64,000 nucleotides of DNA from Tubiluchus corallicola (GCA_030141605.1 JAQGDQ010000026.1:558001-622000); one strand, 5' to 3'. Shown: positions 28,601-46,600, counted from the first letter of the stretch. A program made the numbers and translations. The notes: generated by a model not told the origin, from the sequence alone.

Positions 28601-31600
28601 ACAATTTTCAAGAGATTCCGCTATTTTCTTCTTATAATATCATAATCAAAACTTTGATGCATTTTTTGAGCCACCTGATATAATTGCTAGTTGGTGAAAT
28701 CAATTTCTTGCCATTCCTACATTATGTTGAATCATAGCATTATATATTTTAGAACTACACGCTAAGAGATAACCAATATTTGCAAGAGTATATGTAAATG
28801 CAAATGAAAATTTTCATAATAAAATGACTTTTTATTAAATTAATCGGCTTTTAGAATGAAGTTTCACATGTTTTTTGGTTTCTATGTAAAAACTAATGAC
28901 TTCCCATATAATATGTATACCAAAACATACACTGGATACTACAGAACCTAGACTTTCCGTAAGTTCATTGCTAGTTTCCTAGACTTTCCATAACTTAGCT
29001 GCTACTTTATCAGATCCAGTAAAAAACATGTCAGCTTCTTGATGGAAGCAACATGTTAGATTGCATCACATGTGCAATAAAGTAGTTCATTATGCTAACA
29101 GATACCTGGTGAACGTCTTCTTTACAATCTTGAAAAAAATTTGGCAGAGTCTTTCCTTGAGCTAGTTGCTCTCCAAAATACATCAGTGAATCAGTGTTCC
29201 ATACCTGCATAAATTGCAATGTTAACACATTTATAGTGGGAGATGTTTGAGTGGACCCTTTTTTAAGCCTCATGCAGTTAAGCCCTTACAAATTGCCGAA
29301 AGGGTTATCCGAGGACCTACCTTATACAGGTTAGTCTGAAAGCAGTTATATAACTTACATTTCACAGTAACTAAAGTGCAAGTATATATATATATATTCC
29401 TATGCTTATACATAATATAGTATATAGTATACTAAAAAATAATTAATGAAAACATGCTGTTTTAACTGAAAAATTGTATTGCGATTTAAGTTACAAAGTG
29501 TAATATTGGCACTAAAACAGCGATAGCTGTAGCAATGCAAACAAGCTACTTTACAAAGTCAGTATAGTTACAGATTTACTCACAGTGCCTGAAAATGCAT
29601 TCTTTTTAGTATTCTAGCTGTATGTAGTATTGCTAGCTTTTTTTATTCACATTGTAACTAAGTTTTAGGTATGTAGTTTTTTGCAGCTTCATAAACTTCT
29701 AAAACACACAGAACAAAAATTATAATATTACTTGTTTTACTAGCAAATGGATCTTAATTACAGTATTGGATTTATTCATATCCAAAATTTTGGTCCACTG
29801 GACCCTTTTCCACAATGCCCATGGGCCTTTTTTGGCAATGCTCCCTCCCCGAATTTGCTTCCTACAGTCTTGAGTACAATAAGCAGTAAACTTTTAACCT
29901 AAGGCTTAGTTTCCATATAGATGAATTTCTTACATAATGTCAACTGCTAGTGTCGGATCGTAATGGAAGCATCGCAATGATACTATTAAATCGGGAATTG
30001 GGGACTGACGGGGAAGACATAATATAATATAACATAATATAACATAATATAAACCAGGGATATTTTGAGAATATTGGAAAAGTAATTCGAATTAAGCTAT
30101 CTCATCATGCATACTGTGGGTGCCAAATAGTGCCATTTTTACAAAAGTGCTGTTAAATGAACATGGTAAATAGGCGATTATTATTGACATGTTTTACATG
30201 CATTTTTACAATAGTTCTTAAACTTACCTTATACACTGATCGACCAAGACCAAAATCTTTATACAACTAAAAAAGAAAAAATACAAAAAAATTAGCAACA
30301 AATTTTTTCTTTATATAAATCTATTATTCAAAACAACTTTAAAAAAATATTTGTCTAACTGGTAAAATCCAGAAAACACAGCACATTTATCAACAGTACA
30401 GGGCATTGAGGCCCAGTTAAATGACACAATATCCTGAAATTTTGTATACTGTTGCACATGATAATTTACTACACATTGAATTTGGGAAGATTCTGGTTGC
30501 AGACTAAGACTTTTCTAATGAGGAACAGACATCTTAAATCGTATAGACGGTATTATCAAGTAATAAACACCAATGATATTCGCAAACAAGATAACCTATT
30601 AAAATAAGGCACAACTACATTTTAAGCATCGCTGCTGATTGTTGATGCAGTTTGAAATGCAAAAATTTTCGCACAACACACTAAACACAGTAATATTCTA
30701 ATAAAGAAAAACAAATGTATACTACTCTATGCAAACGAAATAGGAAAAAAAGGAGTAACGCTGATAATTTCCCTTGCCAACCAATCAACTATTTTGTAGA
30801 AACACTGAAGATAGACAAAAATATTGTTTTAAAGTAATGTATACATTTTTGCAAAAACTTTAGAGTTAGTGGATGTGCCATAATTAAAACTTTAAATGAA
30901 CCGAAGTAAAAAGGTTTAGGACCGCAAAACCATGCTTTAGAATGTCACAGAAAATGCATAGAACATCAGACAATCAGAATGTTACAGGGTGATAAAAAGT
31001 CCAAATTTCATACTAACATAATTATTTCTGTAAATTTATGAGGGAAGAAGTTGTACAGTCAACAAAACAGGAGGTGGTACAGCAGTCACTGTTATTATTA
31101 TTTCTGTTGGAACATATTACCTAGATATTAGATATCTACACACGACACAGGAGATAAGGTGTGAAACCTCACATATGTTATAGGATAGTGAAAGCGGGAA
31201 AGTATGCAGTTACACTTAACACTTGAAGTGTGTCAGCTTACAACTCACAAGTAGAGCCTTTGTTACTGGATTATAATGAAGTGGTTGACAGTATTATGCC
31301 TTCTTGTTGGTGCTGCAGTATCAGAGAAGCCCGTTGGTGTGATGGAACACATTGCAGAAGTTAATAAAGGTTTTGTTATATACATTTATCTTAAATACAC
31401 AGTATTATCATCAGCAACAGAAATACACAGCATTATCATCAGCATCAGCAACAAAATAAAAAAAGAGGTAAAAGTAGAAGCTAATAAGAAGGCACAAGAG
31501 AAAAAGAAGGTTTATATCTATATGCGCACGCACACACACACACACACGCAGAGAGAAGAGCAGAGGACAAAAACGAATGAATGGAGAGGAAAAACTGAAG

Positions 31601-43600: not shown

Positions 43601-46600
43601 AAAAATAACATGCTAATTTAAAACTATACATGTTTACTATTATAATAAATATAGCCACGTGTTTCACCCATTTCACCTACCTGTAGTTACGTATTAAGTA
43701 AGACACTCTGAGTTCAGTTAAACTTTGACCAACAGCAACTGCGTGTGTGCATAGCAAAACTGTGAAAAGGCTTATTTTGATAGAATACTGCAAAAAACCT
43801 AACAAGATTGAAATCAAACTTCACGAGAAAATAACAAATACGACACCACTAATTATCTTTCTACTTTTAGATAAAAGACACAATTTCAACATGTATGATT
43901 CAAGCCACATAACGAATATGGAAACTTACGACCTGAACTCTGTCATGCATTATCAGACCCATGCATTTTCTAATAATGGCCAGCCAACCATCACTAGGAA
44001 GGGAGATCCAAATGCTGAATATTATCTTGGACAACCCCATGATGGAGGAGGCTTTACACAGAGAGATATTAATAAGCTAAACCAAATGTATTGTTAATAA
44101 ATTGCTGTACAGCAACAACAACAAAAACAGCAACAGCTTTATGATGAATACACTAATAAACTAAGAGAAGAAACATAAAAGTAAAAAGATACTAATAAGA
44201 TAAATGAAAAGGAATTTTGAATGACTCCTTAGTGTAAACGTATGGCAACAATGAACAAGCCAATAAGATATATAAATGCGACATACCATGTTCTAAGAAA
44301 CGGTAATAAACTAAAGAAAATTTTGATGCTAATTTGCTATTAGGTGTCATTGAAACTGTAATATGAAGTAAACTGGTTCACATTGAAATATACAAATAAG
44401 ATGATACAAGTGATGTGTAAAAATTGAGAAAAATTACTGTGCTAAATAACCAATGCAGTTAGATTGTTCAATAAAATCATTAAAAATTATGAAAGTTTAA
44501 ACAAAAAAGTAATAAAGTTCCTGATGAGAACAAGTGTTAGTTATTTGTTATAAATATGGTGTAAAATAATTCCCCTTTTGAAAACTTCACAGACTTACTT
44601 ACAGCTAAAAGGAAAATTTTATGGCAATTTTTTACCTCTATATTTTCAATAAACGCCGACTTTTTAATGCCAAAAATACAGCCAAACAGCCCAACACTTC
44701 ATCTTTCAGGATTTTAGATACATATAAAGTTTTAACTACATGCAAAGTTTCAAAATGCTAAAGCAGTCAAAAAAATTAAAATATAATAAGTGTAGTAAAT
44801 GTTACATATAACTTACAGCTTTGTCCTGGCTGATAAAAACCTCAAGGTTTTCACACCCCGTTTGCTCTATCCAGGCAGCTGCTGCTTCACGGGTCCCAAA
44901 AAATATTGCGAGTATCTTTGCATTTGCAGCAGTTATTTCAGGCTATGAAATAGTTATAATAGAAAAAATCCTTATTGTGTTAATGGGTAAAGTAAAAATG
45001 TCAATACACATACACGTATGCACGCACGCACACATACACACACACACACCTAACAATGATAAAAAATGCAAATTTATGAAGAAAGCAATAGTTTGAAATA
45101 AAATTTCAATGCATTGCAGTAACCTGCTTAAAATATACATTATTCGTGTTACATCAGTGAAGGTAAATGCAAGAAATATGTATACATATGTATACGTGCA
45201 TGCACCCTCACGCGATTTTTATTTACTAAAAATAAAGGCTGCTGTTTGTTTTAAAAGACCAGCAGTAATTTATATAAAATTAGAAACAATTTTGAATCCA
45301 TTACTTTTGCAGCAGTAAAGCATATATTTTTCAAAATTTTATTTCAACAGACAGGTTTCAAATCTAGTTTGTACTGTTATTTACAGAACTTTTTCTGTTT
45401 TATGCTACTTTGCCCTTCCACCAACATGATCAAGTGTTGACAGGTTCTGGCGGGATACAAGCGTAATAGCACGCGTTTTTTTATGAGACAGGAGATGTGG
45501 ATCCACACAGGTAGCATTCTTAATTCCCAAACAGTCAAAACATTTGTTGTTAAAGTGATACTATTGCCATTAAGTGAACCTTACTGTACTTCGCAAATTA
45601 TGATCTGGACAAATAAAAATCTCAACATTCTTGTGCAGCCCATGAGCATCTTATGCCTACAAGACTCATTTAAATGTTTTTAAGGCTAGAATAGTGTAAT
45701 TACCAGTTTGTGATATAACTCCTGCATGTGCATACGTCAAGGCACTCAGGCAAAGTGTCTCAGCAAAACGAGAATCACATGACTGTCTCTAACGATACTT
45801 GCTAATGAAGTCGTCTCTCCCGTCTTAACATTGAGTAATGACGCATCAACAGGTGCCCTATCACCAACACATATCGGAGGCACACTCTCTAAATTAGTAT
45901 TTACTCTCTTTTCAATGTTGAGAAGAAATGTATTCCAGTTGTCCTTAAAAAAAATAACACAATATTAACAAGACAAGAGAATGAAGAAAGCCACAAAAGC
46001 TCCTCTCTACTTCCCAAATTCTTGAAGTTCAAAGTCTATATTTTTTAAAACACAGAAGGTCTTTAAATATAATATTTCCACGACTAGTGTAAATTCAACA
46101 GCCTTACAAATAAAAAAGATTTGAATACAAAGATGAATACAAAAAGACTACATGATTTCGCACAGTGTGCATCAAAGTGGTTTTTTCTCCATTAAATAAT
46201 ATTCCCTAATGACGAAATTTAATTTGTTTAGCCTCAGCAGGTTCTGAAACATAATGTAAACTAAAGCATTCAGTGGTGTTTGGACATATGCATGTTACAA
46301 TGTTTCTACAAAGTCTTATTTGGATAAAAGAGGGGAATAATATCGGATAGTACCAAACAGTCATCATTTACTCGACCTGTTTCCTGGCAGACAAAATTTA
46401 CATTTTTTTGGAGTCAAATAATTAACACAAAACAAAAACAACAAAAAAGTATTCACAAAACTCAAATGCAATGTAAACTCTCATTTCATTTCACACTGTG
46501 TTGCATCTGTAATGAAATTCGAACGCAGATCTTTTAATCCAACATGAATCTTTTAATTATGCCTAACGTCAAACAAGTGAAAAAGGCATAATAAAACAAC

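Follow-up and report, generated by a model that had tools for sequence, protein, structure and literature searches.

In a 64,000-nucleotide stretch of Tubiluchus corallicola DNA (GCA_030141605.1, JAQGDQ010000026.1:558001-622000; the whole stretch is referred to as the window), three intact astacin-type protease genes, A, B and C, very probably lie head to tail and antisense within the sixth intron of a predicted selenoprotein L (SelL) gene, where they were likely produced by two duplications in place. A preliminary description had placed three complete, six-exon protease genes on the plus strand of a 14,550-bp gap between a SelL donor at 44817 and an acceptor at 30266. Comparison with the assembly and the gene models showed those coordinates to be exact. 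The three genes were indeed complete: their frames are open, without stops or shifts, all 15 introns are GT-AG, and exons 5 and 6 passed the cut-off of the Pfam Astacin profile (PF01400) in six of six translations, with E values from 1e-10 to 5e-23. They are situated wholly between two consecutive predicted host exons, with 1,009 bp from exon 7 to the ATG of gene A and 719 bp from the stop codon of gene C to exon 6.

The host gene and its sixth intron

The SelL gene was modelled on the minus strand, from 48213 to 25685, as ten coding exons which encode 300 residues and are separated by nine GT-AG introns. Exon 5 contains two in-frame TGA codons, at codons 66 and 69 of that exon (UxxU). About 120 bp 3' of the stop codon, also on the minus strand, is a selenocysteine insertion sequence (SECIS). 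It is the sole Rfam match of the window, with a SECIS_1 score just over the gathering threshold (35.8 bits compared to 35), and its fold (z -3.17) beat 199 of 200 shuffled sequences. Single-exon matches to AhpC-TSA (exon 5) and AhpC-TSA_2 (exon 6, profile positions 7-45) were weak and below cut-off.

Two proteins from a relative were used to examine the exon models. P0002, one of 29 candidates obtained with an exon 5 query, corresponds to the N-terminal half; it aligns without gaps over exons 1-5 (119/153 residues identical) and ends right before the first TGA. Its top two Atlas clusters are named Selenoprotein L (0.97 and 0.96), with a low recognition score. P0003, a protein of 137 residues from a 1,083-bp contig, was the one protein among seven candidates when exon 6 was the only query, and it aligns to the SelL model without a gap, in one block that starts at the end of exon 5 and extends to the stop codon (118/137 identical). 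P0003 passes PF13911 (AhpC-TSA_2) with 52.3 bits against a cut-off of 27, and it is through this 86%-identical protein that a thioredoxin-like AhpC/TSA domain was located around and after the UxxU motif. When metagenome contigs were scanned with P0003, none of the 33 pattern matches was confirmed. The identity of the gene as selenoprotein L is supported at the level of sequence; its orthology to described SelL, rather than to another Prx-like selenoprotein, is putative, and selenocysteine insertion and a diselenide are predicted. Each SelL exon was observed only once within the window.

Two public runs, X1 and X2, were mapped on positions 36600-46400, a stretch which does not include exon 7. 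X2, guessed to be RNA, is about 90% alike to the window. X1 covered 28 of 30 bins and is perhaps not independent of the assembly. The SelL contig in X2 joins exons 4 and 5 and ends inside exon 5, the loose end having been matched by eye. The features of the host gene, all on the minus strand, are as follows.

48114..48213, minus: SelL coding exon 1, predicted ATG at 48213; 20/29 aligned residues identical to P0002
47807..47885, minus: SelL exon 2; 23/26 identical to P0002
47224..47277, minus: SelL exon 3; 14/18 identical to P0002
46718..46763, minus: SelL exon 4; 12/15 identical to P0002, and the loose end of the X2 contig matches its 3' end at 29/30 positions
45704..45943, minus: SelL exon 5 (gene model), with two in-frame TGA codons (UxxU) and a weak AhpC-TSA match
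44817..44942, minus: SelL exon 6, with the donor of the long intron; 35/42 identical to P0003, weak AhpC-TSA_2 match
30267..44816, minus: SelL intron 6, predicted from the gene model; 14,550 bp, GT-AG, phase 0
30228..30266, minus: SelL exon 7 (39 bp), with the acceptor of the long intron; 12/13 identical to P0003
29106..29204, minus: SelL exon 8; 31/33 identical to P0003
27070..27177, minus: SelL exon 9; 30/36 identical to P0003
25685..25696, minus: SelL exon 10, last codons and stop; 3/3 identical to P0003
25505..25567, minus: SECIS element in the SelL 3' untranslated region (Rfam SECIS_1 and fold)

The donor at the end of exon 6 is GTAAGT, and exon 7 is preceded by a pyrimidine tract and AG, both boundaries being in phase 0. 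At 14,550 bp the sixth intron is 16 times the mean of the remaining introns (228, 529, 460, 774, 761, 1023, 1928 and 1373 bp), which are as short as had originally been stated. The frame of exon 6 meets a stop four codons into the intron, and no replacement for exons 7-10 was detected inside it (best E 0.5). With a small leave-one-out matrix, which was built on 13 splice sites and is only indicative, the acceptor of exon 7 ranked third among 702 host-strand AG sites, and the donor of exon 6 scored 3.8 bits, the lowest of 14 scored. In the relative's contig, which is intronless, the reading frame of P0003 has exons 6 and 7 joined as the model predicts. Because the UGA codons and the SECIS flank intron 6 on opposite sides, the exon 6/7 splice would be required for a working gene.

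The three astacin-type genes

The three nested genes have exons of the same sizes (94, 41, 88, 118, 182 and 227 bp) in the same phases, and each encodes 249 residues.

31276..35452, plus: astacin-type gene A; exons 31276-31369, 31779-31819, 34297-34384, 34507-34624, 34796-34977, 35226-35452
36294..38996, plus: astacin-type gene B; exons 36294-36387, 36772-36812, 37663-37750, 38056-38173, 38346-38527, 38770-38996
40368..44097, plus: astacin-type gene C; exons 40368-40461, 40958-40998, 42110-42197, 42347-42464, 43050-43231, 43871-44097

Exon 5 of gene A has PDB matches to meprins and to crayfish astacin (1ast, 6ht9). No further astacin was found within the window, and a homolog search with astacin exon 6 returned nothing at E 0.001 among two candidates. 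Contigs of X2 skip B-type introns 2, 4 and 5 and also intron 5 of gene C, the latter at GT..AG (four joints, among the 15 listed of 33). SelL and astacin contigs are both present in this one bulk run, which is uninformative at the level of the cell.

According to the accessible part of PMC9848320, the hallmarks of astacins are the HExxHxxGxxH motif, a Met-turn of the SIMHY type, a family-specific Glu after the third His, and an FxGDI motif in the pro-segment. Genes A, B and C keep HExxHxxGxxH with its catalytic Glu, an xxRxDRD tail, an SVMHY Met-turn with its Tyr, and four cysteines. The residue after the third His is Thr, not Glu, both in the three genes and in their closest relative, P0018 (55% identical). 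Thr occupied that position in 17, and Glu in 150, of the 182 motifs found in the 150 best hits. Because Thr replaces the family-specific Glu, the genes are filed here as astacin-type, a recurrent variant, and not as canonical astacins. By eye, the N terminus is hydrophobic and the DI of the pro-motif can be aligned, the F and G not being kept. Compared to crayfish astacin (1ast, 6ht9; PMC9848320, as far as accessible), the likeness extends to a signal-like N terminus, a short pro-segment with Asp, the zinc motif, the Met-turn, xxRxDRD, four cysteines and the lack of C-terminal domains; the differences are the Thr and the reduction of FxGDI to DI. The hydrophobic N terminus, the pro-segment Asp and the single catalytic domain predict that the proteases are secreted zymogens, and they would be expected to work like single-domain secreted astacins. 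A role in digestion is a guess made by analogy with the family.

The genes had also been described as lying in the intron with their promoters. What can be seen is that the 200 bp upstream of the ATG align among A, B and C; that these regions act as promoters is presumed. A conserved block with a GATAA word is present 125-130 bp upstream of each ATG (31144-31180, 36161-36197 and 40230-40266, plus strand), and is a candidate promoter or 5' untranslated region element.

Origin of the cluster and alternative explanations

The proteins of A and B are 94% identical, and that of C is 83-87% identical to them. Synonymous divergence (dS), calculated from the gene models, is 0.24 between A and B and 0.57 for C, and the ratio of nonsynonymous to synonymous divergence (dN/dS) of 0.13-0.19 indicates purifying selection on all three genes. 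C split first, and A and B diverged later. Since X2 has both C-type and A/B-type transcripts, the first duplication would predate the split from the X2 lineage. The upstream regions and introns are homologous among the three genes, and tandem duplication is supported by a head-to-tail junction between units A and B.

35620..35707, plus: approximate head-to-tail junction of units A and B, from the match boundaries of the A tail and B head

The match between the tails of A and B ends at about 35620-35646, and the match between their heads starts at about 35650-35707. The spans from ATG to stop take up 10,610 of the 14,550 bp of the intron (73%), and high-copy repeats account for part of the remainder. 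On these grounds the tandem part of the original proposal, in-situ tandem duplication, stands. Duplication in place, inside the intron, is the simplest reading and a likely one; a ready-made cluster may instead have moved into the intron.

We propose that one intron-bearing protease gene landed in SelL intron 6 and was then duplicated twice in place. As its five introns were kept, the founder would have arrived by a DNA-level event, and unequal crossing-over would have added the copies with the SelL exons untouched. Transcription of SelL would run through the cluster and the 14.55-kb intron would be spliced out, because the UGA codons of exon 5 need the SECIS beyond the intron; host and guests would be separate transcription units. 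With the antisense orientation, neither the 15 astacin introns nor the poly(A) signals of these genes stand on the host strand; the nesting would thus be tolerated, and the intron would provide neutral room for the gain of copies. The AATAAA hexamer occurs in the intron 11 times on the host strand and 33 times on the opposite strand; this skew was not counted as evidence, because most of the window has an A-rich plus strand. The proteases are probably strongly expressed in a restricted secretory tissue, under the control of their own shared upstream element. Interference with SelL is possible in cells making much protease, and would be a local by-product rather than a designed switch. The flanks of the locus are gene-dense and orderly, with a thymidylate kinase gene downstream and RNase T2 and a BIR-domain gene upstream.

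Several observations weigh against this account. P0003 derives from the relative's mRNA and is silent on whether astacins occupy the relative's intron. No loose end at 44817 was present among the 12 of 340 listed, the mapped stretch stopping before exon 7. The listed X1 pieces (8 of 1,269 records) leave 44259-44974 unbridged, and the physical linkage of gene C to exon 6 therefore depends on the assembly. The GATA-like word upstream of the genes is weak (4 sites per 600 bp, compared to 0.47 per 200 bp) and its copies are not independent. The absence of additional SelL or astacin copies applies to the window, and further copies may exist elsewhere in the genome. Finally, an X1 contig at 38046-38612 is intermediate: it differs from B at 19 places, compared to 44 for A, and it carries the letter of A at five of the six places listed; variation in copy number or structure, gene conversion or collapse of contigs may lie behind it. 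A fourth copy was considered as the source of the X1 differences on B. It was rejected, as the listed letters equal those of A (12 of 12 in B coding exons, among 40 of 154 rows and with one intronic row and the rows outside B excluded); cross-mapping, conversion and collapse are indistinguishable as causes.

It is unlikely that the arrangement is an artefact of assembly, with the cluster misjoined into the SelL locus or B representing a second haplotype of A placed in tandem. Such an error could be suspected because the listed X1 pieces span neither of the boundaries tested and the intron has typical sites of mis-joining, namely a GA microsatellite and high-copy repeats with a summed X1 depth above 1,000 at 39216-39869 and 43140-43466; the intermediate X1 contig points the same way. 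However, SelL exons 1-10 flank the cluster in the right order and on the right strand, and each is present exactly once, which would be rare for a chance join. Nor do A and B resemble alleles: with a dS of 0.24, 71-94% likeness in 200-bp bins and an intron 2 that differs by 1.6 kb, they are too divergent, and their divergence is far above that between X1 and the window, where seven of the eight listed X1 pieces differ at 0-3 places. The occurrence of C-type and A/B-type transcripts in X2 also speaks for distinct genes, and were B false, A and C would stay nested. That the cluster broke its host, leaving SelL as two dead or dying halves with a working copy elsewhere, is extremely improbable. 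The disproportionate size of the intron and the low score of the exon 6 donor would suit a broken gene, and the splice is unseen in this species. Against this, the ten exons, those before the intron as well as those after it, are open, in phase and 77-100% identical per exon to the relative's protein, and the gene retains its two TGA codons and its SECIS. If the cluster arose in place, the dS of A and B makes it old enough for a dead SelL to have decayed.

The preliminary description had suggested that convergent transcription may make host and nested genes mutually exclusive or co-regulated. If the nesting were a selected regulatory coupling, convergent transcription from the three astacin promoters would switch SelL off or on in the cells which secrete the protease. 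The geometry permits this, but to our knowledge no pathway connects a thioredoxin-fold selenoprotein with an extracellular protease, and we regard such coupling as very unlikely. Nested pairs in Drosophila diverge in expression more than other pairs (PMC5174743), and a nested gene in C. elegans can induce its host (PMC12274878). The accessible parts of the same papers, however, regard most nestings as neutral or mildly deleterious (PMC5174743) and coexpression as a possible by-product (PMC12274878). In a more specific form, the astacin promoters would act as an antisense switch tuned by copy number, in which SelL transcription in protease-secreting cells stops in intron 6, the UGA codons are parted from the SECIS, and the message, taken for nonsense, is lost. 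We consider this distinctly unlikely; if true, the nesting would be kept by selection across the lineage.

Neighbouring features and known nested genes

An RNase T2 gene, a single-exon open reading frame at 51184-52026 (minus strand, Pfam E 6e-50), is upstream of SelL in the same orientation. The end of a likely non-coding exon is seen near 52540, and an acceptor-like site is located near 48250, at the SelL ATG exon; RNase T2 and SelL may have a first exon in common, or RNase T2 may be situated within an intron of the SelL 5' untranslated region. Inverted copies at 32293-32623 and 39514-39826, which are 75% alike, represent a short element that contains GTTCGAATTC-type repeats, and the summed X1 depth above 1,000 suggests a high-copy, non-autonomous transposon. 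The thymidylate kinase gene identified with Pfam (about 24006-16920, minus strand) starts about 1.7 kb past the SelL stop codon, and its first intron has imperfect repeats of about 150 bp and a 175-bp duplicate at 21467-23143. A TIS11/ZFP36-type gene with tandem CCCH zinc fingers was located at 11257-12910 (minus strand), with a short first exon near 12910. The 5' part of a large BIR-domain gene (BIR E 4e-20) covers about 57250-64000 on the plus strand, and is presumably BIRC6/Bruce. Decayed reading-frame fragments at about 53570-54450 (plus strand) resemble, by eye, the reverse transcriptase of a long interspersed nuclear element.

The comparisons below are with the accessible parts of the papers cited. 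SelL has been described as having two selenocysteines two residues apart and one SECIS (PMC3316567), and is widespread among marine invertebrates (PMC3473315, PMC2874816). The present model resembles SelL of fish and invertebrates in its UxxU motif, single SECIS and thioredoxin-like AhpC/TSA C-terminal half; it differs in having nested genes, which those parts of PMC3316567 and PMC3473315 do not report. A SelL/astacin nesting was not found in the literature searched, as judged from listings, and published lists of nested pairs may contain astacin cases. The preliminary description likewise knew of no described case. The locus is a new instance of an arrangement which is common in animals. Knowledge of nested genes is not changed by the locus alone. 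Its use is more practical: annotation pipelines would tend to break SelL at two points, the UGA codons and the long intron, and the model rescues a selenoprotein gene. A young three-copy array in a small host also lends itself to the question whether introns offer neutral space in which tandem arrays of genes can grow. The same locus is suited to asking whether convergent transcription lowers the output of the host, the SECIS beyond the cluster giving a sharp read-out.

Nested structures involve nearly 10% of Drosophila genes; of the nested genes 71% are antisense, as are most of those with introns, a bias for which the explanation offered is that the splice and poly(A) signals of the guest are kept off the host pre-mRNA (PMC3814207). 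Of 833 expressed pairs, 461 belong to complex nestings, in which one host can contain up to 13 genes (PMC5174743), and 567 opposite nested pairs are given for C. elegans (PMC12274878). The SelL locus shares with these systems intron-bearing genes placed antisense in a long intron, several per host, and an over-representation of duplicates (PMC3814207, PMC5174743, PMC12274878). In contrast to them, the host here, from another lineage, is a selenoprotein gene that is short and has small introns apart from the sixth, and a three-copy array of paralogs occupies 73% of that intron. The insect TipE cluster is likewise a cluster of paralogs nested in a host, and is expressed independently of that host (PMC3240667). 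The TipE nesting, however, is ancient and conserved over 21 insects (PMC3240667), whereas the astacin-type copies in SelL are young, with dS values of 0.24-0.57.

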